A stretch of 64,000 nucleotides of DNA from a virus (lineage: Duplodnaviria > Caudoviricetes). Positions within the stretch are counted from its first letter, which is position 1. Each line of letters opens with the position of its first letter. Positions 11,376 to 37,457 of this stretch are shown in pieces. The notes beneath the pieces were generated by a model. That model was not told the DNA's origin, searched no databases, and saw only the letters and a program-made list of their open reading frames with translations. The DNA is taken from positions 1 to 64,000 of the IMG/VR virus record IMGVR_UViG_3300017913_002143; one strand, 5' to 3'. The translations under genes were made by a program, and so were the position numbers.

Positions 11376-12230
11376 ATGATATTGATTGACTTTAATGGTT
11401 TGGCAGTTGCAACAGTAGCTGTCAATAAGACTGATGATCCTAACTTACTGAGACATATGATACTGAACAGTCTTCGGTTGCATAGAACTCAGTTCAAGAA
11501 AGATTATGGTGAGTTAGTTATTTGTTGCGAAGGTATTGGTAACTGGAGGAAGGATTACTTTCCACAGTACAAAGCCAATCGTAAGAAGTACAGAGAACAG
11601 TCCGACATTGATTGGAACGAAGCATTCCGTGTACTGAGTGAAGTACGTGATGAGATCAAAGCAAACTTCCCGTACAAAGTTATTCAGGTTGATAAGTGTG
11701 AAGCTGATGACATCATTGGAGTACTTGCATCTAACACTCAAGAGTTTGGCCAGTATGAAGATGTACTAATTATCTCTGCCGATAAAGACTTTATGCAGCT
11801 GCAGAAGTATCCAAACGTACATCAGTACAATCCTATCCAGAAAAAGTTTTACAAAGAGGATGCTCCAAAAGCAAACTTGATTGCAAAGATATTGAAAGGT
11901 GACACAGGTGATGGTGTACCTAATGTAATGTCTGATGATGATACCTTTGTTACAGAAGGCAAGCGTCAGAATAAATTGTCTAAGAAGAAGATGGAAGAGA
12001 TTGTTGAAGATCTTGCAGATGGTGAATTACTTTATGCAGCTTCATGGTATCGTAACTACCAACGCAATGAGACTCTAATCGATCTTGATAAGACTCCAGA
12101 GGATCTAAAATTTAAAATTGTTTCAGAATTTAATGAACAAGATCCTAGTAAAAACAAAGGTATGGTGTTCCCATATCTTATAAATAAAAACATGAAAATG
12201 TTGATTGAATCCGTAGAGGAATTTATCTAA
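11376..12230 (+). CDS. rnh: T4-type RNase H / 5'-3' exonuclease
   Basis: ILIDFN, WRKDYFPQYKANR, EADDIIG, ISADKDFMQL, KGDTGDGVPNV motifs. Confidence 0.92.
   Translation: MILIDFNGLAVATVAVNKTDDPNLLRHMILNSLRLHRTQFKKDYGELVICCEGIGNWRKDYFPQYKANRKKYREQSDIDWNEAFRVLSEVRDEIKANFPYKVIQVDKCEADDIIGVLASNTQEFGQYEDVLIISADKDFMQLQKYPNVHQYNPIQKKFYKEDAPKANLIAKILKGDTGDGVPNVMSDDDTFVTEGKRQNKLSKKKMEEIVEDLADGELLYAASWYRNYQRNETLIDLDKTPEDLKFKIVSEFNEQDPSKNKGMVFPYLINKNMKMLIESVEEFI
12179..12186 (+). promoter_or_regulatory. T4 late promoter (inside rnh 3' end)
   Basis: Exact TATAAATA 43 nt before the next ORF. Confidence 0.45.
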
Positions 12231-16538: not shown

Positions 16539-16567
16539 TTTACCTTTTCTGAAAAGTGGTGTATAAT
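16539..16567 (+). promoter_or_regulatory. Sigma70-type early promoter
   Basis: TTTACC-17 bp-TATAAT, AT-rich UP element, spacer contains palindrome TTTTCTGAAAA. Confidence 0.75.
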
Positions 16568-16596: not shown

Positions 16597-17004
16597 ATGT
16601 GGTTAGAAAATTCTTGTAAAGATCTTGAGCCTTGGATTGATGCATTGAATGAACGTGTACCATTCAAGGGTGCATGTGAACTGAAGTATACAAAGAACAA
16701 GTCTTTGGATCGCTTCCGTCGTGCACAGAATGTTGTTCATGATATCTTTAATAACGGTCTGATGAATCGTTATCGTGAGCTTCGTGTTCTTGATAAGAAT
16801 CTTCGTGTACGTGATTTACCTATTCATGCATCTAATGAAGATAAGTGGGATATTGTTGAAGAGCGGGTTGCTCCTCACTTCCGCATCATTGTTGAGAATG
16901 CAGTATTTGAACAGTTTGGTCGTGATGAGTATCTTCGTATGATGCACAACAGATCAAGCAATATTATTAACCAAGCAATTGAAGATGGAAGGATCTCTGC
17001 ATGA
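16597..17004 (+). CDS. Hypothetical early protein
   Basis: SD AAGGAG; first gene after a strong promoter. Confidence 0.55.
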   Translation: MWLENSCKDLEPWIDALNERVPFKGACELKYTKNKSLDRFRRAQNVVHDIFNNGLMNRYRELRVLDKNLRVRDLPIHASNEDKWDIVEERVAPHFRIIVENAVFEQFGRDEYLRMMHNRSSNIINQAIEDGRISA

Positions 17005-17537
17005 TTTATTTGGATATGGATGGAGTCATTGCTGACTTCTTTGGTGGAATTGAAGATCGGTTTAATGTTAGACATTGGAAAGATCTAAAGTGGAAAGAAG
17101 AAGTGTTTGCACAACTTGCATATACAGACTTCTTTGATACACTTCCATGCTTCTTTGATGGTAAGAAAAACTTATCAGCTAAGATTGTAGATCACGTCAA
17201 GCTACAAGCGTTTGAGAATGATATCCAGTGGGGTATCTGTTCATCTCCTATGCGTGGTGATGAGACAAACTCTATCTATCACAAACGTGTATGGTTAGAG
17301 CGTATGAACTTCATGCCAGAAGTTTGTAACTGTATCTTTACATCAAACAAACACAAGTATGCTATGAGTCCTATTGATGGCAGACCTAACATTTTGATTG
17401 ATGATAAGCCCGAGAATATCTACCGCTGGGAGCAAGCTGGTGGGCTTGGTATTCGCTTTCAATGTAACCAGGATGATATTGAAGAGTATCTTTTTGAGCA
17501 ACTTCAAGATTGTCTAACTGTGAGGATGGATGGATGA
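17001..17537 (+). CDS. 5'(3')-deoxyribonucleotidase, HAD family
   Basis: IYLDMDGVIADF motif I and ILIDDKPEN motif IV. Confidence 0.8.
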   Translation: MIYLDMDGVIADFFGGIEDRFNVRHWKDLKWKEEVFAQLAYTDFFDTLPCFFDGKKNLSAKIVDHVKLQAFENDIQWGICSSPMRGDETNSIYHKRVWLERMNFMPEVCNCIFTSNKHKYAMSPIDGRPNILIDDKPENIYRWEQAGGLGIRFQCNQDDIEEYLFEQLQDCLTVRMDG

Positions 17538-17782
17538 CATTTATGCAAGTATTAAATCTCAGAACTGAGTTTGAAGAGATTATTAAGGACTTCAACATGG
17601 GTTGTCAGGTCATGCAAGGGCATTCTAAGTCTGGTATAAATACCATCGAGTGGTTCGTGGAAAATGGATTTAGGTCCAATCGTCTACGCAATGATTATGA
17701 TCGTGCAATGGAAATTGCTAACATAATTAAGGAGTACGCAGATGGCTGCACAAAAGAAGTTAGAAGCTGGGAGTCAATATGA
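17534..17782 (+). CDS. Hypothetical protein
   Basis: ORF coupled to upstream gene (ATGA). Confidence 0.5.
   Translation: MTFMQVLNLRTEFEEIIKDFNMGCQVMQGHSKSGINTIEWFVENGFRSNRLRNDYDRAMEIANIIKEYADGCTKEVRSWESI
17635..17642 (+). promoter_or_regulatory. T4 late promoter upstream of the EF-hand membrane gene and glycan cluster 1
   Basis: Exact TATAAATA, 99 nt before the ATG at 17742. Confidence 0.6.
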
Positions 17783-18113
17783 ACATTTTGACAAAGACGG
17801 CGATGGTATAATTACTGATGAGGAATTTGAATTAGAACGAGAGATGATGAGAGCAGAAAACGAAGATAAAAAAGAAGATCAAATTAGACGAATGGCGTGG
17901 TTTGCTCTATGGGGGTTATTGATATATCCAGTAGGTATTGTAGTTACTGATCTGTTACCGTTTAGCTTTGAATCTACAAGTCAGCTTCTAGCTGATATTG
18001 CTCCTACTTATTTTGTGTCGGTATCTGCTTTGGTTGGTGCATTCTTTGGTGCACAAGCATATCAAAAATCAAAAACACCTCAACCACCTCAAGGAAGGCC
18101 ACCAAGGAAGTAA
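17742..18113 (+). CDS. EF-hand-motif membrane protein (holin-like)
   Basis: DKDGDGIITDEE Ca-binding loop plus two hydrophobic helices ending in AFFGAQAY. Confidence 0.55.
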   Translation: MAAQKKLEAGSQYEHFDKDGDGIITDEEFELEREMMRAENEDKKEDQIRRMAWFALWGLLIYPVGIVVTDLLPFSFESTSQLLADIAPTYFVSVSALVGAFFGAQAYQKSKTPQPPQGRPPRK

Positions 18114-18118
18114 ACATT

Positions 18119-18904
18119 ATGAAACGAATGATATATCAGGTTTACACAGGTAAGCCTTCTAAATTATATGACCATTGTACAAATTCAGTTAGAGATTATT
18201 GTAAAGAACATAATATAGATCATGTGGTACAGAAAGTACCAAAGATGAGGATTAAGCCTGATATATTCGTTACCAATAGAAGCAAGGAGTCATACGAGAA
18301 GTATGGTGGCTTCTTGCCTATCTATGAAAAAGAAAATGCATTTGATTACTGGGACAAGTATGATCAGATCTGTATTGTAGATGCAGACATCTGGATCCGT
18401 CCTGGGTCTCCAAATATCTTTGATGAGCTCAAACCAGAAACAGACTTTGCTGGTGTTATTGAACGGCAGCTGCCAATCTTAGATTGGTACAAACAAAAGC
18501 TGGTTGGTTATACTCGTATGCAGTATGGACCCTTGAATAAGATCAATTGGTATAATGATGAACGTGGATCTGAATTCTATAATATGGGTCTTATGCTGAT
18601 GAATAAATCTATCACAAAATACTTACGTGGTGAAACTGGAAAGCAGTTTATTCAGAGACCAGAGTTCAAAGACTTTGTTGATGGCCAAGGTGCGTGGAAG
18701 TGGTCTACTGATCAGACACTTCTCAACTATTGGGTCAGAAAAGAAAATATGAACTGCCAACATCTCAAGTGGAGATGGAATGGTTTGTATAGTGCTATCA
18801 GTGATGAGAATATCAAGAAAGCTAACTTTGTACATTTCTTCTTGAAAGATAAGTTGCCTAATAGAGGAGAGAATGTAAAAGAGCTAATGGAGGCTGTACA
18901 GTGA
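18119..18904 (+). CDS. Glycosyltransferase, GT-A/GT8-like
   Basis: IVDADI DxD motif, YNMGLMLMN, DQTLLNYW, HFF. Confidence 0.75.
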   Translation: MKRMIYQVYTGKPSKLYDHCTNSVRDYCKEHNIDHVVQKVPKMRIKPDIFVTNRSKESYEKYGGFLPIYEKENAFDYWDKYDQICIVDADIWIRPGSPNIFDELKPETDFAGVIERQLPILDWYKQKLVGYTRMQYGPLNKINWYNDERGSEFYNMGLMLMNKSITKYLRGETGKQFIQRPEFKDFVDGQGAWKWSTDQTLLNYWVRKENMNCQHLKWRWNGLYSAISDENIKKANFVHFFLKDKLPNRGENVKELMEAVQ

Positions 18905-19347
18905 TTCTGATATCTCATAGAGGTAACATGGATGGTAAACAACCAGTTCTTGAAAACCATCCAACACATATACAAAGAGCATTAGCTCATAACTTTGATG
19001 TAGAGATTGATGTTTGGTATGACAAAGGTTGGTGGCTTGGCCATGATGGACCTGAATACAAAACAGACATGAACTTTCTCGAGAACCGTAGGTTCTGGAT
19101 TCACTGTAAGAATGTTGCTGCATTAACTTATCTACAGCCAACAAAGTTAAATTATTTCTGGCATGAAGAAGATAGCTATACTCTTACCAGTCATGGCTAC
19201 ATATGGGCATATCCAAATGAGATGGCTATAGCTGGTGGTAATTCTATCGCTGTTATGCCAGAGATACATAATACAGATGTTAATTTATTCACTGGAATAT
19301 GTTCCGACAATATAATGAAATACTATTATGAAACTCGTCCTGTTTGA
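18901..19347 (+). CDS. Glycerophosphodiester phosphodiesterase/PLC-like protein
   Basis: ISHRGN, DVEIDVW, WLGHD, GICSD motifs. Confidence 0.65.
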   Translation: MILISHRGNMDGKQPVLENHPTHIQRALAHNFDVEIDVWYDKGWWLGHDGPEYKTDMNFLENRRFWIHCKNVAALTYLQPTKLNYFWHEEDSYTLTSHGYIWAYPNEMAIAGGNSIAVMPEIHNTDVNLFTGICSDNIMKYYYETRPV

Positions 19348-20671
19348 TTTAGATGGTGTTCTTATTGATGCAAAAAAGATACACTATGAATCGTTAAATG
19401 CTGCTCTTGATGATCAATATAAGATTACAGAAGAAGAGCACCTAAACATATATGATGGTCGTAAGACCAGACAAAAACTTCAAATGCTTACTGAGCTAAA
19501 AGGTTTGCCAGTAGAGATGCATGATCGTGTGTATGAAGCAAAACAACTACTCACAATCAAACTTATCAATCAACTATCTCCAATGAAAGAAATCAAACTC
19601 TTGTTCCAAGAACTAGAGGACTTAGGTTATTCCATTGGTGTATGTTCTAATTCTATTCGCAGAACAGTATTGACAGCTCTTGCAAGAGTAGAGCTTATGT
19701 CACATTGTTCTGTTATTGTATCAAACGAAGATGTAAAGAACTCAAAACCACATCCAGAGATGTATTGGAAAGCTATGTCTATGATGGGGTGTTTACCAGA
19801 AGATACATATATCATTGAGGACTCTCCAGTTGGATTACTTGCCGCTCAGAGATCAAGAGCCAATTATATTAGAGTAGACAATCCTTATGATGTCACTAGA
19901 GAGAAGATTCTGAAGAATTTGAAAGGTAATGATATGAAACCAAAATGGAAGGATGATAATCTAAACGTACTGATTCCTATGGCAGGTGCAGGATCACGTT
20001 TTGTAGAAGCTGGATACACTTTTCCAAAACCATTGATTGATATTGATGGCAAGCCAATGATTCAAGTTGTCGCGGAGAATCTTGGAGTAGATGCTCATTT
20101 CATTTATGTGGTACAAAAAGAACATAACGAAAAGTACAATCTCGAAAGTATGCTTAATCTGATTACTCCAGACTGTGATATTGTTGAAGTAGATGGAATT
20201 ACAGAAGGAGCTGCGTGTACAGCTCTTATGGCTAAAGAGTTTATCAATAATGGATCACCTCTGTTATTTGCAAATTCTGATCAGTACGTTGAGTGGGAAC
20301 CATTAGAGTTTATGTATGAGATGCAAGAACGAGATTGTGATGGTGGCATAGTTGTGTTTGAAGCTACACATCCAAAATGGTCATTTGCAAAAACAGACAC
20401 ACTTGGTATTGTAACAGAAGTTGCAGAAAAGAATCCTATCTCAAATCAAGCCACTGTTGGATATTATTATTGGAAGCACGGTGCTGACTTTGTTAAGTAT
20501 GCAGAAGATATGATAAGAAAAGACATACGAGTTAACAATGAATTCTATGTGTGTCCAGTATATAACCAAGCTATTGAAGATGGTAAAGTTGTACGAACAT
20601 TCAAAGCAGATAAGATGTGGGGTTTAGGTACTCCAGAAGATCTTGAGTATTACCTGAAGGAAAAGAGATGA
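19328..20671 (+). CDS. Fusion of HAD phosphatase (N-terminal) and sugar-phosphate nucleotidyltransferase (C-terminal)
   Basis: FDLDGVL, KPHPEMY, IIEDS; then IPMAGAGSRF...PKPLI, EGAACT, NNEFYVCP, WGLGTPEDL. Confidence 0.8.
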   Translation: MKLVLFDLDGVLIDAKKIHYESLNAALDDQYKITEEEHLNIYDGRKTRQKLQMLTELKGLPVEMHDRVYEAKQLLTIKLINQLSPMKEIKLLFQELEDLGYSIGVCSNSIRRTVLTALARVELMSHCSVIVSNEDVKNSKPHPEMYWKAMSMMGCLPEDTYIIEDSPVGLLAAQRSRANYIRVDNPYDVTREKILKNLKGNDMKPKWKDDNLNVLIPMAGAGSRFVEAGYTFPKPLIDIDGKPMIQVVAENLGVDAHFIYVVQKEHNEKYNLESMLNLITPDCDIVEVDGITEGAACTALMAKEFINNGSPLLFANSDQYVEWEPLEFMYEMQERDCDGGIVVFEATHPKWSFAKTDTLGIVTEVAEKNPISNQATVGYYYWKHGADFVKYAEDMIRKDIRVNNEFYVCPVYNQAIEDGKVVRTFKADKMWGLGTPEDLEYYLKEKR

Positions 20672-21402
20672 CAGTAGACAAATATTTGAACATGCAGCGT
20701 TCTCATTATCATAGTGAGGCAAATAAATGGTCGCTGAAGAATAAGAATCCTGTTGTTGGTGGATATCATAAACATAATGCATGGGAAGATTATGACAAGT
20801 ATCTATTCAAAGATTTTGATACAACAAACTTGATTGCAATTGATTATGGTACTGGTCCTGGAAGAAATATCATTAAGTTTAATAATAGATTTAAACAAAT
20901 AGATGGTGTTGACATTGGCCAGAAAAACATTGATAATGCTAAGATCAACTTAGAAGATGCTGGCATCACTGATAGTCAGCTTTTTGTGTGTGATGGTAAG
21001 AGTACTCCTTGTGAGGATGAATCTTATGATGTTTGGTTCAGTGTGATATGTTTGCAACATATTGCTTGTTATGATGTGAGGTTTTCTATTCTTCAAGATG
21101 CATATAGAATTCTAAAGCCTGGTGGCCATATCTGTTTCCAGATGGGCTATGGCGGTAGAGATACAGAAAGCAACACCTACAGAAACTATTCAAGAGGTAA
21201 CATATTACAGACTGCTGGGTATTATGATAATGATACAAATGCTAAAACAACAAACGGATTACATGATGTGAGTGTTAGTAATGAAGATCAAGTAAAGAAC
21301 GATCTGAAGAAGATTGGGTTTACTGACATCAAAACAGATCTAAGACCTACTGGACCAGGATGCAGTCACAAACAATGGATATATGTTCAAGGGACTAAGT
21401 AA
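20668..21402 (+). CDS. Class I SAM-dependent methyltransferase
   Basis: IDYGTGPGR motif I, GVDI, LQHI, ILKPGG. Confidence 0.8.
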   Translation: MTVDKYLNMQRSHYHSEANKWSLKNKNPVVGGYHKHNAWEDYDKYLFKDFDTTNLIAIDYGTGPGRNIIKFNNRFKQIDGVDIGQKNIDNAKINLEDAGITDSQLFVCDGKSTPCEDESYDVWFSVICLQHIACYDVRFSILQDAYRILKPGGHICFQMGYGGRDTESNTYRNYSRGNILQTAGYYDNDTNAKTTNGLHDVSVSNEDQVKNDLKKIGFTDIKTDLRPTGPGCSHKQWIYVQGTK

Positions 21403-22151
21403 TGAAAGTAGCTGTATGTATCAGTGGGACGTGTACATCATCTAATCCACTAACAAGTTTGAAAAAAAATAATCAACGTCAAAAAGAAAAGTTTGCGGGT
21501 CACAACTTTTACTATGCAACCTACGATAGTTTTAGAAATGTATTTGAAGAAAACTTTCCAGACGACAATTGTTTTTATTTCAAAGAACCAGAACCAGATT
21601 ATCATCCATACACAGATGTACCAACAGATGCTCACATATCCCACTACTTCACAGAACGTGTAAACTGGGCTAAAGGATTATCAGCAGAAAAGACAAAATG
21701 GACAAGACATCACGTTAAACAAATACTGATACATTCGTGGCTTGTTGATCAAATTGATCAAGATTATGATGTTATTGTTAGAGCAAGGTTTGATGGTTTC
21801 TTTCACAAGACTGCTGATTGGAAACCATATATCAAAGATGCATATGAGAATGGAACTGTGCATGGCTTTGCTGTAACAAGAAAGAATATGTTTGATCAGT
21901 TCTATGACTCTCCTATGGAGAAAGGATCTAAGCATGAAGTGTATATGTTGGATCAGCTAATCATCCACCGTAGAGATCGCTTGCAAACTTCTATGGTATA
22001 TAATCTATACGAAGAACATAAGCTACATGCAGCTGAGTTTGGTTGGTACCAAGTACTAAGTCATCCTTGGGGTGGTGTGCACAAGAACCATCATGGGTTT
22101 GTTAACCATGATAAAAATATATTAGATCAGTACTTAATGGGGTTAAAATGA
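21402..22151 (+). CDS. Putative glycosyltransferase/glycan-modifying protein
   Basis: MKVAVCISG start and YDVIVRARFD motif seen in capsule/LPS-cluster proteins. Confidence 0.55.
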   Translation: MKVAVCISGTCTSSNPLTSLKKNNQRQKEKFAGHNFYYATYDSFRNVFEENFPDDNCFYFKEPEPDYHPYTDVPTDAHISHYFTERVNWAKGLSAEKTKWTRHHVKQILIHSWLVDQIDQDYDVIVRARFDGFFHKTADWKPYIKDAYENGTVHGFAVTRKNMFDQFYDSPMEKGSKHEVYMLDQLIIHRRDRLQTSMVYNLYEEHKLHAAEFGWYQVLSHPWGGVHKNHHGFVNHDKNILDQYLMGLK

Positions 22152-23044
22152 ATGTTTTGATTACTGGAAGCTCAGGCTTTCTTGGAAAGCATGTAGCGGA
22201 CACGTTTATGCAAAATGGATATAAGGTTTATGGAATATCCCGTGCTCCTGTGTTGGCATCATACAATCAATATGCTGTTGATATAAATGATTTTGATACA
22301 ATTAACAGAATTGTCAGTGAGCGTGATATCAACATTATTGTACATACAGCAGGTAAGCCAGTCGTTCAAGACTGTGAACGTAATCCATATGATGCATATA
22401 AAGTTAATGGATTAGGTACATCATCTATACTTGAATCAGCCCGATTGAATAGAGTAAGTAAAGTAATCTCTATCGAGACTGATAAGGTATATGGATACCA
22501 AGAAGTTGTTCCTACAAACGAAAATGCTATTCCTAATCCTGGATCTCCATATGAGTTTTCAAAATACCTTGCTACAGAGTTTGCAAAATTCTATAGGGAC
22601 TATTATGATCTTGATGTTATTAGTGTAAGACCAGCAAACTTGTATGGACCTTTTGATTTCTCTACAAGTAGAATTATTCCGAGAGCTTTGGATAACTTGA
22701 AGAGAGGTAAAGGTATTCGTCTATATGATACAGCTCTTAATATGAAACGAGACTTTGTATATGTAAAGGATGCAACCAAAGCAATCTATCAATTAGCAAC
22801 CACACAATGTTCTTCAAACATATACAACATTAGTGCTAATGAACCAATCACTATCAAGGATCTAGCTGACAAGATTGTAAACACATTAGGTATTAATATC
22901 CCACACGATATTGTAGAGAAAGGAGATTCATATACAGAAATTCCTCTACAAGAGATTGATGGCGATCTACTAACAAAAGAATTTAATTTTAAGTACACAC
23001 CATTTGAAGATGCTATCAAAGAGACTTGGGAAGCTATACAATGA
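22148..23044 (+). CDS. NAD-dependent NDP-sugar epimerase/4,6-dehydratase (extended SDR)
   Basis: TGSSGFLG, ETDKVYG, PYEFSK (YxxxK), RPANLYGP, RDFVYV. Confidence 0.88.
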   Translation: MNVLITGSSGFLGKHVADTFMQNGYKVYGISRAPVLASYNQYAVDINDFDTINRIVSERDINIIVHTAGKPVVQDCERNPYDAYKVNGLGTSSILESARLNRVSKVISIETDKVYGYQEVVPTNENAIPNPGSPYEFSKYLATEFAKFYRDYYDLDVISVRPANLYGPFDFSTSRIIPRALDNLKRGKGIRLYDTALNMKRDFVYVKDATKAIYQLATTQCSSNIYNISANEPITIKDLADKIVNTLGINIPHDIVEKGDSYTEIPLQEIDGDLLTKEFNFKYTPFEDAIKETWEAIQ

Positions 23045-23706
23045 AGGGTATAATCCTACAACATTACAATGGTAAACTTGGTGAACTCGAGAAGCAATCC
23101 TCAGAGAACATTAAAGCATATGCAGATAAATGTAATGTTGATTATAAACTTGTCAGAGGTATTGTTAAGCCTGGACTATCAAATCAATCTCAGAAGATGT
23201 GTATGTTAGATGAAGAGTGGGATTCATATGATGTTGTTGTAATGATGGATATTGATATGTTCACTCGTAAGGGTCAGACAAAGAATATATTCACAGATGA
23301 GACTGGTGTTGGTAGACACCATGGAATTCAAACACATCTTATAAAAAAGATTCATGATCAGTTTCCATTTCTTGCAAATCCAGATTATGCATATTGGGGT
23401 GGATCAATCTATAGGTTAACAAAAGAAATGAGGCAACGTCTCAGACCACACTTCAACATGAGTGAGGCTACTCAGTTTAGTCATAACTATAATGATGAAG
23501 GGATTATGCATAGACTTGCAGTATTGGCTGGTATAAAGAATCATAAGAGTCATTACTTAGATCGTCAGCAATGGAATTATTCTAGTTTTGAAGATGGAGT
23601 TGAAGATGCTGAAATCATTCACATCAGAACAAAAGTTACACCAAACGGTCCAAAGAGAAGCAAGCTAGAGAACTACAAAGCATTAGTCAAAAAAGAATTA
23701 ATATAA
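23041..23706 (+). CDS. Putative glycosyltransferase, GT-A-like
   Basis: VMMDIDM DxD motif, DEGIMH, QWNY, IIH. Confidence 0.6.
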   Translation: MKGIILQHYNGKLGELEKQSSENIKAYADKCNVDYKLVRGIVKPGLSNQSQKMCMLDEEWDSYDVVVMMDIDMFTRKGQTKNIFTDETGVGRHHGIQTHLIKKIHDQFPFLANPDYAYWGGSIYRLTKEMRQRLRPHFNMSEATQFSHNYNDEGIMHRLAVLAGIKNHKSHYLDRQQWNYSSFEDGVEDAEIIHIRTKVTPNGPKRSKLENYKALVKKELI

Positions 23707-24539
23707 TGAAGAATGTAATCTATCAATTTTGGGATGGTAATAAAAGACAGTCTGTAGATGCTGGTGTTAAAGCTATGAAGAAGTATGCTGACTATATTGG
23801 CGCAGATCATGTGTTTGAGGATAATCCACAATGGATAAAAGGCCTCGGTATGGACTTTGGTAGCTACACACCACACTATGGAGCATTCAAACCATTATGG
23901 AGCAAGAAGTACCGTGAATACGACAACATCCTTTTTTGTGATACTGATATTTTCCCCGTTGATGGGATTACTGATAATATATTTGAAGAGTTTGATGGAG
24001 AACTCAGCATATGTGAAGAAACGTGGCAACCAAAGCAAAGGACGATCACAAAAGGTAGAATCACATCTCAACAAGATAACCTTTGGGCAAAAACGGTCGA
24101 AGAAGCATATGGCTTTGATGTTCCAAGGACAGAAGAAGGGCTTGTCAAAGTTTACAATACAGGAGTAGTTTTATACTCTCAATCTGGAGCAAAACATGCT
24201 CGCGAGAAATGGACAAAGTTCAAAGAGTATATTAACCTTATTCGTACCAAACCACTTGACAGTTTCTATACTTCAGATCAAGGATATCTTCATACTATGA
24301 TGTTTGCAACTGGTATGAAGATTGATTTTATGGATTCAAAGTGGAATAGCTTTATTCATGGTACAAGAGATATTAATCATGCAGACCGTTACATTGTTGA
24401 TCATCGCAAACCAGATACATGTTTTGTGCATGCAATGTTTCCTGGTGCAGATGATATGAATGAAGAACAGTTACTAAGGATTGTTAATAATGATCCAAGT
24501 GAATGGCAGTATGATAGATTTGTTGTGAGGACTCCATAA
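23706..24539 (+). CDS. Putative glycosyltransferase, GT8-like
   Basis: FCDTDIF, YNTGVVL, DQGYLH, KWN, FVH. Confidence 0.7.
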   Translation: MKNVIYQFWDGNKRQSVDAGVKAMKKYADYIGADHVFEDNPQWIKGLGMDFGSYTPHYGAFKPLWSKKYREYDNILFCDTDIFPVDGITDNIFEEFDGELSICEETWQPKQRTITKGRITSQQDNLWAKTVEEAYGFDVPRTEEGLVKVYNTGVVLYSQSGAKHAREKWTKFKEYINLIRTKPLDSFYTSDQGYLHTMMFATGMKIDFMDSKWNSFIHGTRDINHADRYIVDHRKPDTCFVHAMFPGADDMNEEQLLRIVNNDPSEWQYDRFVVRTP

Positions 24540-25078
24540 TGAAAGCTAAAATTTGGTGTTTAGGATTATCTCGTACAGGCACGACCACTCTTACAGAAGT
24601 ATTGAAGAAGGCTGGGTATAACCATATTCATTATCCTACTGATGAGCAGATGTATGATATGAATAATGATGGTTGTGGTGATATTCCAGTGATACCAGTT
24701 TATCAGGATCTTGATAAGAAGTTTCCTAACTCAAAGTTCATATACACAGTACGAGATAAAGAATCTTGGTTAAGATCTATGCATCCATATCTTGAACGTA
24801 AGAAGAAATGGAATCAAGGTCAAAGACAGATTGATATAAGAAAAACTGTTTACGGTGACCCCTTTTTCGTGTATACTTTGTATAGTAATGCATACGATCG
24901 TTGGGATCGTGAGTTTCGTGAATACTTTAAGTATCGTCCAGATGATTTCTTAGTGCTGGATATACTTAACGGAGACAAGCCACAGAAGTTGTTTGACTTC
25001 TTAGGTAGTAGTTATAAGTTGGATAGTTTTCCACACTATAACAAACTTGTTGATGGTAGAGGTGTACAAGTAAAATGA
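24539..25078 (+). CDS. Sulfotransferase family protein
   Basis: LGLSRTGTTTL 5'-PSB loop and KFIYTVRDKESWLRS 3'-PB motif. Confidence 0.78.
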   Translation: MKAKIWCLGLSRTGTTTLTEVLKKAGYNHIHYPTDEQMYDMNNDGCGDIPVIPVYQDLDKKFPNSKFIYTVRDKESWLRSMHPYLERKKKWNQGQRQIDIRKTVYGDPFFVYTLYSNAYDRWDREFREYFKYRPDDFLVLDILNGDKPQKLFDFLGSSYKLDSFPHYNKLVDGRGVQVK

Positions 25079-25779
25079 AAGCATACTGTATCGTAATACC
25101 TAATAATCAAGTATCGCTTGGTGGATTTAAAAAACTTAAGAAGTCACTAAAAGATACACACAATACAGAAAACTTTGACCTTGAGATGTTTACAGCAACA
25201 ACACCTGAATTTGCAAACGTAACTCTTGTTGGTGAAGGATTGAAGTGGACATATCCTTGGGATGGACAAACAATTGACTTTGCGTCTGGTTTGACACTGA
25301 AGGCCTATCCAACACAATACAAAGAAAGACGTATTGCATGTTTTATGAGTCACTATAGACTTTGGCATCAGTGCGTTAAACAAGATGAACCAATCTTAGT
25401 ATTGGAACATGATGCTCTATTTGTGCATAGAGTTGCACAGTTAGATTCAATCTTAGAATCTAAGTATGACATCATAGGCATAAACAATCCGCTGATGGCT
25501 ACAAGACGAGCTCAGAAATATAAAGAAATTATTGAGAGCAACGATAAAGAAGTTCAACCTGTTCCAGCTATTGATGAGTTTAATGTACCACAAGGCCTTG
25601 CTGGAAATAGTGCATATATAATTAAACCAGCTGGAGCAAAGAATGTTATTGCAGCTGCGAAAGAATATGGCGCTTGGCCAAACGATGCTTTGATGTGTAA
25701 GCAGATAATACCAAGGATGGGTGTAACTAAAACATTCTACACCAAGGTGCAAGGACTTCCATCAACGACTACAGGATAG
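25075..25779 (+). CDS. Glycosyltransferase family 25-like
   Basis: IACFMSHYRLW, ILVLEHDA, AYIIKP, PND. Confidence 0.75.
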   Translation: MKAYCIVIPNNQVSLGGFKKLKKSLKDTHNTENFDLEMFTATTPEFANVTLVGEGLKWTYPWDGQTIDFASGLTLKAYPTQYKERRIACFMSHYRLWHQCVKQDEPILVLEHDALFVHRVAQLDSILESKYDIIGINNPLMATRRAQKYKEIIESNDKEVQPVPAIDEFNVPQGLAGNSAYIIKPAGAKNVIAAAKEYGAWPNDALMCKQIIPRMGVTKTFYTKVQGLPSTTTG

Positions 25780-25782
25780 ATT

Positions 25783-26442
25783 ATGAAAGCATATGTGATC
25801 ACAATAATGGACAACGAGAAGTCTGTAATAGCTGCTCGAAGATGTATTAAGTCTGCAAAGCTCTATGATGTTAATGTAGAGATGTGGCCTGCTACTACTC
25901 CAAAGGATGATCCATATAAACTGTTTGAAGCAAAAGGTTTGCCTCACGATAAGTTTGAAGAAAAGTATTCGCGTAAACTAAATTGTATGTCCGCTTTCCT
26001 GTCACATCATTCACTGTGGGAAGAGTCTGCATTACGTAATGAAACAATCATGATCTTTGAGCATGATGCACACATTACTGGTATGCCTCCTGTAAAAGCA
26101 AACTTCCAAAGTGTTATTACATTTGCAAAGCCATCATATGGTCAGTTTATTACTCCATCAACTATTGGTGTTAATCCTCTCACACAGAAGACATACTTTG
26201 GTGGAGCTCATGGATATATGGTAAAGCCTCATGGAGCAAAGATGTTAATGGATGCAGCTAAGAAAGTTGCTGGTCCAACAGATGTGTTTTTAAATATTCA
26301 GTTCTTTCCATCACTAGAAGAGTTCTTTCCGTGGACTTGTGAAGCGAGAGATAATTTTAGTACAATTCAGAATGAAATGGGTGTGCAGTCAAAGCACAAC
26401 TTCCAGTCATTGAAATCATATGGTATAGAAGATGTCCAGTAA
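25783..26442 (+). CDS. Glycosyltransferase family 25-like (paralog of upstream gene)
   Basis: SAFLSHHSLW, IFEHDA, HGYMVKP, PTD. Confidence 0.75.
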   Translation: MKAYVITIMDNEKSVIAARRCIKSAKLYDVNVEMWPATTPKDDPYKLFEAKGLPHDKFEEKYSRKLNCMSAFLSHHSLWEESALRNETIMIFEHDAHITGMPPVKANFQSVITFAKPSYGQFITPSTIGVNPLTQKTYFGGAHGYMVKPHGAKMLMDAAKKVAGPTDVFLNIQFFPSLEEFFPWTCEARDNFSTIQNEMGVQSKHNFQSLKSYGIEDVQ

Positions 26443-27112
26443 ATACAAATACGATAATTGCGTAGTTACAGGTTGTGATGAAAAGACAGCTTGGCAGCTA
26501 GAGTGGTTCTTAGCAAACTATTCTCAGAATACAAGTGAACCACTTATTATTGCAGACTTTGGTATGAGTGAAGCCACTGTCAATAGGATTAGATTTGCTC
26601 CTGGTGTATCGGGTATTATGGACCTTACAGATACACCAGATCAAGGTTGGTTTAACAAGCCTGTTACTATGATGCATGCACCTGCAAAGAAAGTTGTCTG
26701 GCTTGATACAGATTGTGAAGTTAAATCAAACTTAGCACCACTGTTCCGTCTTTTAGAACCAAATAAACTAAACATGGTAGAAGACAAACCATGGACAAAG
26801 AGACGTGGAGAGATCTGGCATAACTCAGGTGTAGTTGGCTTTATAGATAGACCAATGATATTACATCAGTGGTGTAATGCTATTAGAGAGAAACCAGAAG
26901 TTGGAGATCAAGAGGTACTGCATTCATTATTGAATCCTATCACTCGTATGACATACATTAATGATTTACCGTTTGAGTGGAACGTAATGAGACTTGCAAC
27001 TGATCATGATGGATACAAAGGTAAGATACGTATCCAACACCATACTGGAGAGAAGGGTAACGATAAGATTCGTGGCTTGATGCAGATTAGGAGAGCTATA
27101 GTCAATGGCTAA
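26432..27112 (+). CDS. Putative glycosyltransferase, GT8-like
   Basis: WLDTDCE, HNSGVV, GDQEVL, EWN, IQHHTG. Confidence 0.65.
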   Translation: MSSKYKYDNCVVTGCDEKTAWQLEWFLANYSQNTSEPLIIADFGMSEATVNRIRFAPGVSGIMDLTDTPDQGWFNKPVTMMHAPAKKVVWLDTDCEVKSNLAPLFRLLEPNKLNMVEDKPWTKRRGEIWHNSGVVGFIDRPMILHQWCNAIREKPEVGDQEVLHSLLNPITRMTYINDLPFEWNVMRLATDHDGYKGKIRIQHHTGEKGNDKIRGLMQIRRAIVNG

Positions 27113-27725
27113 GACAGTTCATGTTATTGGTAACGGTGATGCTGTAAATTTTTATAATGAGGAGCAGAACCGCAAAGGATTAAAGTTGGTATGTAACATT
27201 CCTCCATTCAATGTTCCAGACCAATATGCAACTTGCATTGTAGACTTTAAGATGATGCAAACAATCGCAAAGGGTGAGATCAATCCTCCTGGTGAGTGGA
27301 TCTTGGGTATGAGACCTCAAGTTTACTGTCAACAGAATCCTGGTTTCCATATGAAAATTGCAAATAGAGTAAAAGAGTTTTATATAAAGAAGCCTTCATA
27401 TGCCAATAACTATACAGACTTTAACTGTGGCCACTTTGCTGTATATTATGCTGCACAGAAACTAAAAGCTGATCGTGTTCATATGTGGGGCTTTGATTCT
27501 ATCTTTGACTTCAACCTACGTTCATATACAGATCTTGTTCTTAATTCTGATAGAGGTAATATGAACAACCACAGGTTGACAGAGAACTGGAGACCTTTGT
27601 GGAAGAATATCTTCAACGACTTTTCTGATGGTCGTTGTGAATTCATTCTACATCACTTTCATGACCAGCTAAAGTTTAAAGTTGGTGATAATGTAAAAAT
27701 TGAAGTACATTCAAAAAAAGGTTGA
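27105..27725 (+). CDS. Putative glycosyltransferase (CstII/Maf-like fold)
   Basis: VHVIGNG near N-terminus and HMWGFD near C-terminus. Confidence 0.45.
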   Translation: MAKTVHVIGNGDAVNFYNEEQNRKGLKLVCNIPPFNVPDQYATCIVDFKMMQTIAKGEINPPGEWILGMRPQVYCQQNPGFHMKIANRVKEFYIKKPSYANNYTDFNCGHFAVYYAAQKLKADRVHMWGFDSIFDFNLRSYTDLVLNSDRGNMNNHRLTENWRPLWKNIFNDFSDGRCEFILHHFHDQLKFKVGDNVKIEVHSKKG

Positions 27726-27750
27726 CCCTATTTCAAATATGATGTATAAT
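27722..27750 (+). promoter_or_regulatory. Sigma70-type early promoter
   Basis: TTGACC-CTATTTCAAATATGATG-TATAAT. Confidence 0.8.
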
Positions 27751-27770: not shown

Positions 27771-28199
27771 ATGATTGTATTATCTATTGAAGGTGGCACT
27801 AACAAAGAGCGTGAGATGGCTTATGAAGCTGTTAACTTTGCTCTGAAGACTTTGATGCCTCGTAAGAGAAATATTGAGATAGAAGTTACGATCACTGATA
27901 TTCCTGGTGATGCTGATGCATACCATTGTTGTATTGACAAAGGTGAGCATGAGCTTGAGATACAGACTGGTCTTATCGAAGAAGACTTTATGACAGCTGT
28001 GTTTCATGAAATGGTTCACGTTCGTCAACATGAGCGTGGATTGTTAAAAGATAATGGTATTCGTAAAGCCTGGAAGGGTGAAGAATATATCGGTATCTAC
28101 GATACAGTTGATACATATATGAACCTTCCATGGGAAGAAGAAGCATATAGGCTTCAAGAGGAGATATACACAAAATGGATCCAGACATCAAAATTGTAG
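27771..28199 (+). CDS. Zincin/SprT-like metallopeptidase
   Basis: FHEMVHVRQH (HExxH) and PWEEEAY motifs. Confidence 0.7.
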   Translation: MIVLSIEGGTNKEREMAYEAVNFALKTLMPRKRNIEIEVTITDIPGDADAYHCCIDKGEHELEIQTGLIEEDFMTAVFHEMVHVRQHERGLLKDNGIRKAWKGEEYIGIYDTVDTYMNLPWEEEAYRLQEEIYTKWIQTSKL

Positions 28200-31524: not shown

Positions 31525-32044
31525 ACTGAGGAAGAAGCGCAAGCCTATGACTGCTGAGCAGAAAGCTGCTGCAGCTGAACGTCTTGCAAAGGCTAGGGCT
31601 AATCGTAAGAAGACTGCTGGTCCTCCAAAGAATGTCCATCCATCTGTTGTTGCATTACCAGATGAGAATCTGTTGAGTCTGCAAAGTGTTCGTGGTTGGA
31701 TCAAGCATAACAAAGAACTCTTGTCAGAAGAACGAAGAGCTCTTCGCGCTGGTGTGAAAGGTGCTGAGTCTAAAGTAGCTGGTATTGAAGGTTACATTAG
31801 AAACATGGAACACTACATCCGTACGGGTGATTGGGTTGATTGGTTCTATGGTAAAGAGCAACAGAATAGAATCCGATACAAGTGTATTGCAATGGCGTAT
31901 CACTGGGAAGGTCCTCATAAGGGTGAACCAAAGCGAGATGCTAATGTAGTCTATCCAGATGTGGGTCTATGGACTCAAGAAATGCACGAAGATTATTATG
32001 GGCTACCAGAAGTGCCTGTAAAGAAGAAGAGGAAGAAGGCATGA
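31463..32044 (+). CDS. Basic conserved hypothetical protein upstream of gp33
   Basis: KPMTAEQKAAAAERLAKAR...YIRNMEHYIRTGDW motifs. Confidence 0.55.
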   Translation: MAGKTKKSIRMKQLAEQPQPKLRKKRKPMTAEQKAAAAERLAKARANRKKTAGPPKNVHPSVVALPDENLLSLQSVRGWIKHNKELLSEERRALRAGVKGAESKVAGIEGYIRNMEHYIRTGDWVDWFYGKEQQNRIRYKCIAMAYHWEGPHKGEPKRDANVVYPDVGLWTQEMHEDYYGLPEVPVKKKRKKA

Positions 32045-32283
32045 GTGTAGAAGAGAAGTTCTTAAACAAGGCTCGCTTTTCAAAGTTAGTTGAAACTGAA
32101 GTCATTCAGAAATCTATTGGCTACATGGAAGCCATACTCATTTTATGTGAGGCAAATAATATTGATCCAGAAGATGTCAAGAAGTTTATCTCACCAGGAA
32201 TCAAGAGCAAGTTGGAAGCAGAGGCTATGTCTCTTAACTTCTTGCCTAAAACAAATTCAATAGATTCAGCTCTATTCGAATAA
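32041..32283 (+). CDS. gp33: Late transcription coactivator gp33
   Basis: YMEAILILCEANNIDPEDVKKFIS...KSKLEAEAMSLNFL; position before gp32. Confidence 0.85.
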   Translation: MSVEEKFLNKARFSKLVETEVIQKSIGYMEAILILCEANNIDPEDVKKFISPGIKSKLEAEAMSLNFLPKTNSIDSALFE

Positions 32284-32288
32284 ATATG

Positions 32289-33261: not shown

Positions 33262-34787
33262 TCACTAGTGAATCTACGATGTGCAGAACTTGGCCTGTTG
33301 CCACTAAAGATGACGGGATTTGAGTTCTGCACAGTCGTTTGTGTAGGAGCATTTACAATATTTTGTCTAATGCCCTTTTGTTGAGCTATCTGTTCTTCTA
33401 ACTGACTTATACGATTAGCTCGAGCCACTGATACAGTACCACTATATCCAGAATAACGATTGCCTTGTACGTTAGCTAATTGTTGCTCTAGGATTGCAAT
33501 TCTGTTTTCAGTTTGATCAAGCAGTTGATTTTGTTGAGTAGATAAAGATGATCTAACTGCTTCAACTGCAGCTGCTGAGGCAGCTGCCGCTGCTTCTTCT
33601 TCACTTGGTAAGTTACTGAGAGTAGCATTTATCATATCATTTGTAGCATCAACAACAGCTTCGTTACTTTTAGTAGTTGCATTCAAAACACTATTAATCT
33701 GTCTAACCAATTGTCCTGAGCTCAAACCTTCTGTATCAATACCAAGTCCACTAGCAATAGCTTGTTTATCTTCAAGAGTTCTAGCTCCAAGTAATTGAGC
33801 TCTTGTTGCTGCAACTTGTTCTAGTTGTTTTCGTGCTGCTGCATCTTTTTGTAGTTGAGCTTGACCACTATCAGTTTGTAGCATTGCAGCTTCAGCTCTT
33901 GCTCTTTCTGCTTCAGTAATTATCAAATCACCAAGACCAATTTTTTCTAGTCCTGCATTAAGCGTTTCTTTACCAAACTCTATCACGCTTTGTATGGATG
34001 CTATAATACTATCCATCACATTTGATATGGCTGCTCCCATTTTACCAAATGCTTCATCTACAATTTTTTTATACTCTTCATCTGTATTGTATCTGATAAT
34101 GTAAGTTGATATCTCAAACAAACTTGCTGCAACAGCACCAATAATTGCTCCAATGGGACCACCAACAATTGCCCCAGCAGCTGCACCTGTTGCAATATTA
34201 CCAAGTGATTGTGCTACATCACCTAACAGAATTGCAGTTGAATTTTCAAAGTTATAATCTCTAGCAGCTTTTTCTACAGCATCACCAAACGTCTTAGATA
34301 AGACTAAGCCCGCTCCTGCTATTACTCCTACAAGGCCACCTTTCAACCCACCAACTATTAATCCAGCACCACCACCAATAATCATGCCTTGTACAAGGTC
34401 AGATATAGTACTATCTTCAACCATTCCAATAGCTTCAGTTATTTCATCAGCTAAGAATATCAGAGCAGCTCCCAAGACTCCTTTAGTGAATAAACCTTTA
34501 ATGATTGATTTTGCTAAACCAATTGGATTATCAAACAATCCACCAAACAATCGTGCACCACCATCATCCGTTGCTTTAGTTACTTGAGCAGCTGATTGAG
34601 TTTGTTGAGCTCTATTTGCTTCACGCTCAGCTTCAAGTTGTTTTAATTCTTCTTCTTGGTATCGTTTACGATAGTCTGATGTATAGTCAGCCCACATTTG
34701 TGCTAACGCATCTATCTTAGCATCAGACTGTCGTGCAATCTGATTACTAGCCATTAGTGTATTGTTAATATCAGCTAATGTCGCCAT
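33258..34787 (-). CDS. Tape-measure-like protein (gp29 analogue)
   Basis: 509 aa helical with Gly/Ala-rich hydrophobic stretches; lies downstream of gp26/gp51. Confidence 0.6.
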   Translation of the reverse strand: MATLADINNTLMASNQIARQSDAKIDALAQMWADYTSDYRKRYQEEELKQLEAEREANRAQQTQSAAQVTKATDDGGARLFGGLFDNPIGLAKSIIKGLFTKGVLGAALIFLADEITEAIGMVEDSTISDLVQGMIIGGGAGLIVGGLKGGLVGVIAGAGLVLSKTFGDAVEKAARDYNFENSTAILLGDVAQSLGNIATGAAAGAIVGGPIGAIIGAVAASLFEISTYIIRYNTDEEYKKIVDEAFGKMGAAISNVMDSIIASIQSVIEFGKETLNAGLEKIGLGDLIITEAERARAEAAMLQTDSGQAQLQKDAAARKQLEQVAATRAQLLGARTLEDKQAIASGLGIDTEGLSSGQLVRQINSVLNATTKSNEAVVDATNDMINATLSNLPSEEEAAAAASAAAVEAVRSSLSTQQNQLLDQTENRIAILEQQLANVQGNRYSGYSGTVSVARANRISQLEEQIAQQKGIRQNIVNAPTQTTVQNSNPVIFSGNRPSSAHRRFTSD

Positions 34788-34791
34788 TTTA

Positions 34792-35016
34792 TTATCCTTG
34801 TTGCTTTGCAGCTTTCTCTTCTAAGTGTTGCAATAACATAGTAATATAAATTTCTCTTTCCCACGGTATCATTTCATCTAATTCACTCAATGAATAATGA
34901 AAATTATTTAACAGCTGAAAATTAGTTCTGTAATAATTTTCAAGATTGTCATGAGAAAGATTTAGAAAAAAAAATCTTCTAATCCAGTTATAGTTCTCTC
35001 GTTGACTGTTCCACAT
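34792..35016 (-). CDS. gp51: Baseplate hub assembly protein gp51 (probably expressed as a -1 frameshift extension of gp26)
   Basis: LENYYRTNFQLLNNFHYSLSELDEMIPWEREIY motif; no ATG near the conserved N-terminus. Confidence 0.75.
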   Translation of the reverse strand: MWNSQRENYNWIRRFFFLNLSHDNLENYYRTNFQLLNNFHYSLSELDEMIPWEREIYITMLLQHLEEKAAKQQG

Positions 35017-35675
35017 GATTCACATTTATAATCTATATCAATTAAAAGTTTTGGCATATCTTTCATAAAACTAGATAGCTTTTCAAACTGACTTGTTGTT
35101 AATGATTCAATGAATCTTTGTACTTCTTCTTGTGGTTCATCAGATAGTATTATCTGTTCTTCTTCAGTAAGAATAGCATGCATACACACACGAATTGTTT
35201 CAAATGCAATTTCAGTTGGTGACGCTTCAGTGTTAAGTATAGTTGCATTATTCTTTATATCATTATATGTTGGATATTTCATTTTAACTGAAATGTTGTC
35301 GTCTAACTTAATGACACTATCTTTTGGCTCACTTGATAATTTTGTTTGCTCTAAGAATACCTCAACAGCATTTTTATGTTCACACTTATTACAGATCATT
35401 TGAAGTTTGGTAGTCTCACCAACAGCCTTAGATCGTATTTGTGTAAACATATAGTCTACATCAAAATTAGCTAATTTATTTGCATCAACACCTTCGCAGC
35501 ATGCATTGATTGTATTAGTGATAGCACTTAGAATTTGTTTTGTATCTTTTGATTCTATTGCTATCATAAGAATTTTTTGTTCTTTTACTAAGAACGGTCT
35601 ATATTTTACTACCTCTTTTGTTGATGGTATAACCATTTCATAATGAGGTACTTCATTCAAACGTGGCAGTGCCAT
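34962..35675 (-). CDS. gp26: Baseplate hub assembly/chaperone gp26
   Basis: YRPFLVKEQKILM, FTQIRSKAVGE, two CxxC pairs, C-terminal GLEDFFF. Confidence 0.88.
   Translation of the reverse strand: MALPRLNEVPHYEMVIPSTKEVVKYRPFLVKEQKILMIAIESKDTKQILSAITNTINACCEGVDANKLANFDVDYMFTQIRSKAVGETTKLQMICNKCEHKNAVEVFLEQTKLSSEPKDSVIKLDDNISVKMKYPTYNDIKNNATILNTEASPTEIAFETIRVCMHAILTEEEQIILSDEPQEEVQRFIESLTTSQFEKLSSFMKDMPKLLIDIDYKCESCGTVNERTITGLEDFFF
34966..34974 (-). other. Putative -1 ribosomal frameshift slippery site (T9; T TTT TTT/C)
   Basis: GAT TTT TTT TTC TAA at the gp26 end; the -1 frame continues into gp51. Confidence 0.6.
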
Positions 35676-35684
35676 AATTTACTC

Positions 35685-36912: not shown

Positions 36913-36920
36913 TATTTATA
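36913..36920 (-). promoter_or_regulatory. T4 late promoter of gp2
   Basis: TATAAATA on the minus strand, 5 nt before ATG. Confidence 0.75.
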
Positions 36921-37415: not shown

Positions 37416-37423
37416 TATAAATA
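37416..37423 (+). promoter_or_regulatory. T4 late promoter of the baseplate operon
   Basis: Exact TATAAATA upstream of gp48. Confidence 0.75.
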
Positions 37424-37457
37424 GGTTTACATTACTTTTATTTATTAAGGATACAAC

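Follow-up and report, generated by a model that had tools for sequence, protein, structure and literature searches.

What does a marine T4-like phage decorate when it carries a long run of glycosyltransferase genes behind a late promoter, its own particles or the envelope of its host? Ocean myoviruses often carry glycan islands, which are routinely labelled 'lipopolysaccharide (LPS) genes' without evidence, and the distinction between virion and envelope bears on host range, phage competition and the fate of particles at sea. We analysed the first 64 kb (the window) of the 74.9-kb IMG/VR contig IMGVR_UViG_3300017913_002143, for which CheckV estimates a completeness of 36%, and in which a glycosyltransferase island occupies positions 18119-27725. 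An original prediction for this DNA had placed the island right behind a T4 late promoter and had taken late timing to favour modification of the virion. Our analysis suggests that the likeliest acceptor is a protein that the infected cell produces, chiefly the outward-facing proteins of the virion, with a probability of about 0.4, and virion glycosylation is narrowly the leading hypothesis, on grounds other than timing. The fuller picture, doubtful as a whole, is of a very abundant, uncultured marine T4-like clade in which the outward-facing proteins of the virion would receive, while still in the cytoplasm, an oligosaccharide that is methylated, sulfated and different between strains. Phage-restricted GT8-like, GT25 and Maf-like enzymes would build it, and a late promoter shared with the gene of a putative Ca2+-sensing, holin-like protein would raise their expression.

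The island comprises 13 plus-strand open reading frames (ORFs) in which each junction overlaps or leaves a gap of at most 5 nt, in agreement with the tightly coupled 13-gene cluster that had been predicted. Genes are referred to here by their first coordinate:

18119-18904, plus strand: 261-aa GT8-like retaining GT-A glycosyltransferase, the conserved 5′ anchor of the island (D88, D90 and H239 invariant)
18901-19347, plus strand: 148-aa protein, phrog_34507, with GDPD-like HRG...E.D...HD-like motifs by eye only
19328-20671, plus strand: β-phosphoglucomutase-like HAD domain fused to a sugar-1-phosphate nucleotidyltransferase (Pfam HAD_2, 107 bits; NTP_transferase, 36 bits)
20668-21402, plus strand: S-adenosylmethionine-dependent methyltransferase (Pfam Methyltransf_11, 58 bits)
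21402-22151, plus strand: 249-aa protein of a mostly viral metagenomic family without assignment (>200 metagenomic relatives)
22148-23044, plus strand: extended short-chain dehydrogenase/reductase (SDR) of the nucleoside diphosphate (NDP)-sugar 4,6-dehydratase/epimerase family (Pfam Epimerase, 162 bits; also GDP_Man_Dehyd)
23026-23706, plus strand: GT8-like paralogue of 18119 (likely true start ATG at 23041, overlapping the upstream stop)
23706-24539, plus strand: GT8-like paralogue of 18119
24539-25078, plus strand: 3′-phosphoadenosine-5′-phosphosulfate (PAPS)-type sulfotransferase (Pfam Sulfotransfer_4, 74 versus a cut-off of 22.8 bits; PAPS-loop motifs)
25075-25779, plus strand: GT25 glycosyltransferase (Pfam PF01755, 61.5 versus a cut-off of 24 bits)
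25783-26442, plus strand: GT25 glycosyltransferase, paralogue of 25075 (Pfam PF01755, 36.7 versus a cut-off of 24 bits)
26432-27112, plus strand: GT8 (glycogenin-like) GT-A glycosyltransferase (PDB profile match to glycogenin-1, E 4.7e-4)
27105-27725, plus strand: 206-aa Maf/CstII-like (sialyltransferase-fold) transferase, the conserved 3′ anchor of the island (AlphaFold2 model, pLDDT 80)

Seven of these proteins are supported as glycosyltransferases (four GT8-like, two GT25 and one Maf/CstII-like), and they are accompanied by the HAD–nucleotidyltransferase fusion, the extended SDR, the methyltransferase, the sulfotransferase and two proteins without assignment. Profiles, DxD/His motifs and fold comparison back the GT8-like, the two GT25-like and the CstII/Maf-like ORFs named in the original prediction, whose count of eight glycosyltransferases falls to seven with 21402, for which Pfam, PDB, glycosyltransferase profiles and hhalign gave no match. 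The anchor protein 18119 weakly matches the LgtC profile (E 0.018), and its AlphaFold2 model (pLDDT 82) resembles retaining GT-A enzymes, the top Foldseek match being the capsid-glycosylating A64R of the chlorovirus PBCV-1 (TM-score 0.47-0.58), followed by UGGT, XXYLT1, LARGE1 and LgtC. The paralogues 18119, 23026 and 23706 are without Pfam matches, and all three share an invariant DxD motif and a distal His, as expected for the metal ligands of a GT8 enzyme with a GT-A fold. Protein 26432 carries DxD, NSG, DQE and H motifs and aligns motif for motif with the 18119 family (hhalign E 0.0066). Pfam GT8 itself stays under its cut-off (19.8 versus 24.3 bits), and the two GT25 proteins recover each other by BLASTP (E 1.5e-14).

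The model of 27105 aligns with Maf (5mu5; Z 11.9, 174 residues aligned, 9% identity) and with Cst-I (2p56; Z 9.9) over 168-174 residues, has weak Foldseek matches to ST8SiaIII and CstII, and contains an N-terminal GNG nucleotide loop (GNGD, residues 9-12) that is invariant. Maf itself is a cytoplasmic enzyme that modifies a filament protein, with CMP-nonulosonic acids as donors. Maf flagellin glycosyltransferase (5MU5) is the best structural match of the phage protein, which differs from it as a 206-aa core against 632 aa and in that a search of the contig found no CMP-sugar synthetase.

Among the remaining enzymes, the predicted HAD–nucleotidyltransferase, methyltransferase and sulfotransferase were all recovered by Pfam. 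The 19328 fusion also has PGMB-family and rmlA_long-like NCBIfam matches and is 55% identical to genes of S-CAM9 and S-PRM1, which likewise lie within glycosyltransferase clusters, downstream of nrd genes. For 22148, proposed as an NDP-sugar dehydratase, the extended SDR family holds and the 4,6-dehydratase identity is less certain: GxxGxxG and YxxxK are present, TDK stands in place of the TDE of 4,6-dehydratases, and the best NCBIfam matches, dTDP-glucose 4,6-dehydratase and LegB, lie under the equivalog cut-offs (119 versus 365 bits for the dehydratase). The GDPD identity proposed for 18901 found no match in Pfam, NCBIfam or PDB and was dropped, and an alignment of this protein with cyanophage HAD proteins proved spurious.

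Deduced from family membership, the enzymes would form a pathway in which the HAD–nucleotidyltransferase fusion converts a hexose phosphate to an NDP-hexose and the SDR then modifies the NDP-sugar, possibly to a 4-keto-6-deoxy or epimerised form. The seven transferases would assemble a hetero-oligosaccharide, and the Maf/CstII-like enzyme would probably take a CMP-ulosonic acid from the host, because the contig appears to supply no CMP-sugar synthetase. Decoration of the chain would come last, with O-methylation by the methyltransferase and sulfation by the PAPS-dependent sulfotransferase. A check for membrane segments proposed in the original prediction found no hydrophobic or transmembrane stretch in any of the 13 island enzymes. 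Because the island also encodes no lipid-carrier primer, flippase, polymerase, ligase or other export or membrane component, all steps are predicted to take place on the cytoplasmic side.

We compared the locus with about 20 related contigs, drawn from IMG/VR and from five contigs assigned to metagenome-assembled genomes (MAGs) that are phage. The common gene order runs from rnh through DUF6433, a DNA-binding protein, phoH (in some), a PD-(D/E)XK nuclease, two optional genes, a small ORF and an EF-hand gene to the 261-aa glycosyltransferase, beyond which come 3-10 variable genes, then GT25, GT25, GT8, the Maf-like gene and a promoter, and so onward to gp32. Across this set the ends of the island are conserved and its middle is exchanged; one relative with a 99% identical NT5C gene upstream carries a different middle block. 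The anchor glycosyltransferases are 65-80% conserved between lineages. The 261-aa anchor has 2163 metagenomic clusters, the best 120 of them at ≥68% identity and on contigs of at most about 155 kb, and has no match among cultured phages; the Atlas lists the nearest clusters of this protein and of the 249-aa family as viral. With this one gene represented by more than 2000 metagenomic sequence clusters, the lineage is abundant. The conserved ends may act on a conserved acceptor while the exchangeable middle varies the glycan, and this design offers a defined system for telling virion decoration from decoration of the host envelope.

Several features of the island point to protein acceptors. Both anchor enzymes are well conserved and occur largely in phages, which points to an acceptor that is itself conserved. 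Protein glycosyltransferases are among the best fold and profile neighbours, including PBCV-1 A64R, UGGT, glycogenin and Maf. Among cultured phages, the closest relatives of the island GT25 genes are cyanophage ORFs, and the one in S-CAM9 (613 aa; L050:14413-16254, positions 34413-36254 of the record) joins GT25 and PLOD glycosyltransferase domains (PF25342, 160 bits) to a 2-oxoglutarate-Fe(II)-oxygenase-like C-terminus. Lysyl hydroxylase LH3 and mimivirus L230 are similarly built, which suggests hydroxylation of a protein followed by its glycosylation. Decoration of the virion would have parallels in the particles of chloroviruses or Megavirinae and in the Maf-type glycosylation of flagellin. 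Virus-encoded glycosylation of virions is described for the fibril clusters of Megavirinae (PMC10117803) and, according to the citation of Freeman et al. 2023 in PMC12801897, for the capsid and tail of mycobacteriophages. With the systems of PBCV-1 (A64R) and Megavirinae the island shares cytoplasmic, virus-encoded sugar-nucleotide synthesis, GT-A transferases and methylated sugars; it differs in being known from genes alone and, unlike the mycobacteriophage genes, in not lying next to structural genes.

Other observations weigh against decoration of the virion. LgtC and Cst-I score close to the protein glycosyltransferases, and GT8, GT25 and GT42-like enzymes are equally the standard toolkit of the lipooligosaccharide (LOS) outer core. 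The island lies between rnh/phoH and gp32, away from virion genes; its glycosyltransferase genes adjoin no structural genes and no acceptor motif was identified, which tells against an arrangement of the mycobacteriophage type and not against the function. Collagen-like repeats, considered as possible targets of GT25, are absent from the contig except for a single short stretch rich in Gly, and the contig covers only 36% of the genome. The late promoter, as detailed below, tracks a holin-like gene and not the island. A candidate acceptor sequon, Asp-Ser (DS), was also rejected. It is in 3-8-fold excess in outer baseplate/fibre proteins (14 versus 3.4, 18 versus 3.8, 11 versus 1.4 and 47 versus 11 expected; DS-rich proteins at 48864-50057, 50077-51432, 56716-57666 and 57677-58372 of the window and at 65182-69495 of the contig, L022), often as hydrophobic-D-S-A/D/S/N and with no enrichment of the reverse SD in those proteins; inner baseplate proteins contain less DS than expected, and non-structural proteins about the expected amount. 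The excess is absent in the island-bearing 142-kb relative G001c58 and weak in the 70-kb relative G002c7, as well as absent in C48C1, HTVC008M and S-CAM9, and we do not use it as support.

Whether timing helps to choose between acceptors depends on the sequence flanking the island, where the following features stand:

16539-16567, plus strand: sigma70-type promoter-like site, TTTACC-17-TATAAT, upstream of the transcription unit (equivalent in the related locus L005, TTTACA-17-TATAAT)
16597-17004, plus strand: 135-aa ORF without known function, with a counterpart in only some relatives
17001-17537, plus strand: NT5C-like 5′-nucleotidase of the HAD family (Pfam NT5C, 29 versus a cut-off of 24.8 bits), its stop overlapping the next start (ATGA)
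17534-17782, plus strand: conserved 82-aa ORF of unknown function, within which lie the late promoter and the Shine-Dalgarno site that serves the EF-hand gene
17635-17642, plus strand: T4-type late promoter motif TATAAATA, 99 nt upstream of the ATG of the EF-hand gene
17742-18113, plus strand: predicted holin-like, lysis-associated membrane protein with an EF-hand loop, two transmembrane helices and a basic tail (from topology and homologue neighbourhoods)
27722-27750, plus strand: sigma70-type promoter, TTGACC-17-TATAAT, at the downstream boundary

The exact TATAAATA reported earlier is present at 17635 and does lie upstream of the island, but not directly: the 82-aa ORF surrounds it, and the EF-hand gene stands between it and the first glycosyltransferase gene. 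Positions 17537-17742 are coding and not spacer, as the 82-aa ORF begins on the NT5C-like stop and TATAAATA falls at codons xxT-ATA-AAT-ACx. This small ORF shows 46-68% amino-acid identity across 16 related loci and has no homologue among cultured phages; a possible relationship to the gene that precedes the EF-hand homologue in Roseobacter phage CRP-345 was discarded, no similarity being found.

Copies of TATAAATA are not more numerous in the window than chance allows (8 versus 5.6 in shuffles). All 8 are co-oriented with genes and lie 5-110 nt ahead of a start codon, positions that by our own arithmetic make up roughly 6% of strand-positions, and 5 of the 8 precede baseplate or tail genes. 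Related contigs totalling about 170 kb carry 34 copies on the coding strand and 1 on the other. When the window is counted with 14 related loci, 12 of the 15 sequences retain the copy of 17635 at the homologous site, and this copy is the best-conserved 8-mer in the alignment of the 82-aa ORF (9 of 11). Its Ile codon is ATA in 11 of 11 sequences and AAT is kept in 9 of 9, whereas at other conserved Ile columns the top codon reaches only 64-75%; the codon ahead of ATA keeps a third-position T across replacements by Gly, Ser, Cys and Asp. The embedded Shine-Dalgarno site of the next gene, AAGGAG, shows equal codon freezing and serves as a positive control. With codon choice frozen beyond coding need, the motif is under constraint at the nucleotide level. 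A homologue of gp33, the late transcription co-activator, is encoded at 32041-32283 (phrog_254, E 3.6e-21), directly upstream of gp32, and a functional late promoter at 17635 is well supported by these sequence patterns.

Related motifs occur elsewhere in the window. A copy of AATAAATA lies at 32279-32286, 69 nt ahead of the gp32 start. A second coding-embedded TATAAATA, at 12179-12186 in the 3′ end of the RNase H gene, stands 43 nt before the DUF6433 gene and is kept 43-112 nt before that gene in nearly all relatives. Late-promoter motifs in opposite orientations, at 36913-36920 (minus strand), 37416-37423 (plus strand) and 37439-37446 (minus strand), share a short spacer between the hub and baseplate operons, which point in opposite directions; the minus-strand TATAAATA at 36913-36920 is just 5 nt from the annotated start at 36907, which makes either the start or the promoter assignment doubtful.

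The immediate client of the late promoter is the EF-hand gene, whose product most simply reads as a holin-like lysis protein. It is small, with two transmembrane helices and a charged C-terminus, and its homologues have lysis-cassette neighbours; the Pfam holin match is weak (E 0.047). Homologues at 37-55% identity occur in unrelated phages (L023:2495-2815, L024:2477-2833, L025:2959-3291, L076, L077 and L078). The order is EF-hand gene, spanin and endolysin in CRP-345, lysozyme and EF-hand gene in CRP-207, EF-hand gene, a separate annotated holin and a GH108 enzyme in CRP-810, and EF-hand gene, one further gene and an L-alanyl-D-glutamate peptidase in Limnohabitans phage DC31; in HTVC008M and Melnitz the homologue sits within a late baseplate-hub/tape-measure operon. 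The window protein resembles class II-type holins in its small size, two transmembrane helices, basic C-terminal tail and position behind a late promoter, and differs from them in its N-terminal canonical EF-hand Ca2+-binding loop. The family is a candidate calcium-responsive holin or antiholin that merits separate study, and an antiholin or regulatory role may apply because CRP-810 has a separate holin next to it. A late promoter is expected for a holin-like lysis gene.

It is close to an even chance that the late promoter serves only this lysis gene, the island being an ordinary early/middle auxiliary block into which late read-through runs without meaning for the glycan. The occurrence of EF-hand homologues in lysis cassettes speaks for this explanation, as does the distribution of the motif among relatives. 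G002c7 keeps TATAAATA 66 nt upstream of its EF-hand gene, with the GT8-like gene 2.9 kb further on, and in G001c58, which bears the island and is without the EF-hand gene, the 5 kb ahead of the island contain no TATAAATA; because one relative keeps the pair and the other has neither, TATAAATA follows the lysis-type gene. The exact motif is also missing in L028, and TATAAATA is missing at the homologous site in L007, L018 and L020, of which L018 and L020 have AATAAATA further downstream. Against it, only 5 nt separate the EF-hand stop from the first glycosyltransferase gene, and the trio of small ORF, EF-hand gene and glycosyltransferase is syntenic in most relatives; because no terminator intervenes either, late transcripts must run into the glycosyltransferase genes. 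The explanation concerns timing and is compatible with either acceptor.

Early input to the island is also suggested. Positions 16597-27725 form a single tightly packed unit, and between the promoters at 16539 and 27722 there is no convincing terminator, only weak, intragenic terminator-like matches. Read-through from 16539, which the original prediction had left open, gains from the conservation of that sigma70-type site, and the early promoter that it had placed at the end of the cluster is indeed found at 27722 and kept in five lineages (L006, L007, L009, L016 and L018). For middle-mode genes of T4-like phages without MotA, a combination of early and late promoters has been proposed (PMC2984593). 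The island is thus probably expressed early plus late, not late only, and timing as such does not discriminate between acceptors. The argument from late timing to virion modification does not survive: the promoter's immediate client is the holin-like gene, early input is available from 16539, and the neighbourhood is not one of virion genes. A late promoter ahead of such an island cannot be taken to show that virions are modified, and in the window its first client is a lysis gene.

A second explanation, tentative but to be taken seriously, is that the soluble GT8, GT25 and Maf/CstII-like enzymes act peripherally on lipid A-core at the inner membrane face and remodel the LOS/LPS core of the host. 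Host MsbA and Lpt would export the altered glycolipid and change the surface of infected cells and debris, blocking superinfection or the loss of progeny on lysed cells. The LOS outer-core loci of Neisseria, Haemophilus and Campylobacter use LgtC (GT8), LgtB/Lic2A (GT25) and CstII/Cst-I (GT42) and need no Wzx, Wzy or WaaL. The island matches these loci in its mix of the same three families, in soluble or peripheral enzymes and in the lack of a dedicated flippase or polymerase; it differs in that similarity to them is remote (LgtC, E 0.018; Cst-I, Z 9.9) and its families are phage-restricted. The cassette-like variable middle resembles bacterial surface-glycan loci, the upstream promoter is early and the surroundings are early and middle genes, and this is the published, though speculative, reading of the pelagimyophage and cyanophage clusters (PMC7029224, PMC2984593, PMC12801897). 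Less easily accommodated are anchor glycosyltransferases that stay conserved across lineages while host outer cores vary, the absence of a basic or amphipathic membrane-anchoring tail from enzymes with mixed isoelectric points, and a lytic lifestyle. Isoelectric points and C-terminal tails, compared for signs that the enzymes associate with membranes, were uninformative.

Hypermodification of DNA, in which the enzymes would glycosylate modified phage bases to evade restriction, as T-even phages glycosylate hydroxymethylcytosine, is very improbable: the neighbours do include nucleotide-metabolism genes (ribonucleotide reductase, the NT5C-like nucleotidase coupled to the unit, and nucleases), but seven glycosyltransferases with methylation and sulfation go far beyond known DNA sugar modification, the island families differ from the T4 α/β-glucosyltransferases, and no gene of the thymidylate-synthase/ThyA/hydroxymethylase family was found in the contig, which represents a 36%-complete genome.

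The phage itself is a T4-like myovirus by its ribonucleotide reductase, baseplate and tail genes, SegE-like endonuclease, RNase H, PhoH and gp32. The premise that it is a cyanophage found no support, as the nearest gp6 homologue is that of Phage C48C1 (41% identity), ahead of Methylophilales phage Melnitz (34%), pelagiphage HTVC008M (32%) and cyanophages (31%), and the comparison suggests an uncultured marine T4-like phage that is not clearly a cyanophage. No near-identical DNA was found for the window in cultured phages, and Rfam and tRNA scans of the window gave no matches. A search for bacterial homologues of the Maf-like gene, as a guide to its native context, was abandoned when the only matches in genome collections were phage contigs binned into MAGs. 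These five contigs (L027-L031: NZKY01000163.1, PCAT01000110.1, JAAXIF010000028.1, CASICO010000023.1 and CBFHZN010000007.1), up to 142 kb long, sit in MAGs of Opitutia, Balneola, Sphingobacteriales, Flavobacteriales and Microbacteriaceae, and the binning gives no host information; four have gp32 and most of the island, and L030 matched the Maf-like gene only.

Similar islands in marine T4-like phages are already published, among them 'LPS/cell-wall' clusters with 24 genes in P-SSM2 and 13 glycosyltransferases in S-SCSM2R, and the glycosyltransferases of pelagimyophage host-recognition clusters (PMC2984593, PMC7029224, PMC12801897); the cluster of S-CAM9 and S-PRM1 belongs with them. Like the island, these are hypervariable blocks of NDP-sugar enzymes and several soluble glycosyltransferases (GT8, GT25 and others) in lytic marine myoviruses, with putative roles. 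The window phage differs in belonging to a separate lineage, with gp6 at most 41% identical to that of any cultured phage, and its island differs in anchors (the 261-aa GT8-like protein and the small ORF) without a cultured-phage match, in the sulfotransferase, in its conserved ends and exchangeable middle, and in the embedded late promoter beside the holin-like gene. This case adds the conserved-ends/variable-middle architecture in an abundant uncultured clade, a sulfotransferase within such an island, and a constraint-tested embedded late promoter with its tie to an EF-hand holin-like gene. Just past the boundary promoter, at 27771-28199, lies a gene for a 142-aa protein with an HExxH motif (phrog_10499; weak metallopeptidase-like Pfam matches), which is kept in most relatives and stands immediately 3′ of the island in several.

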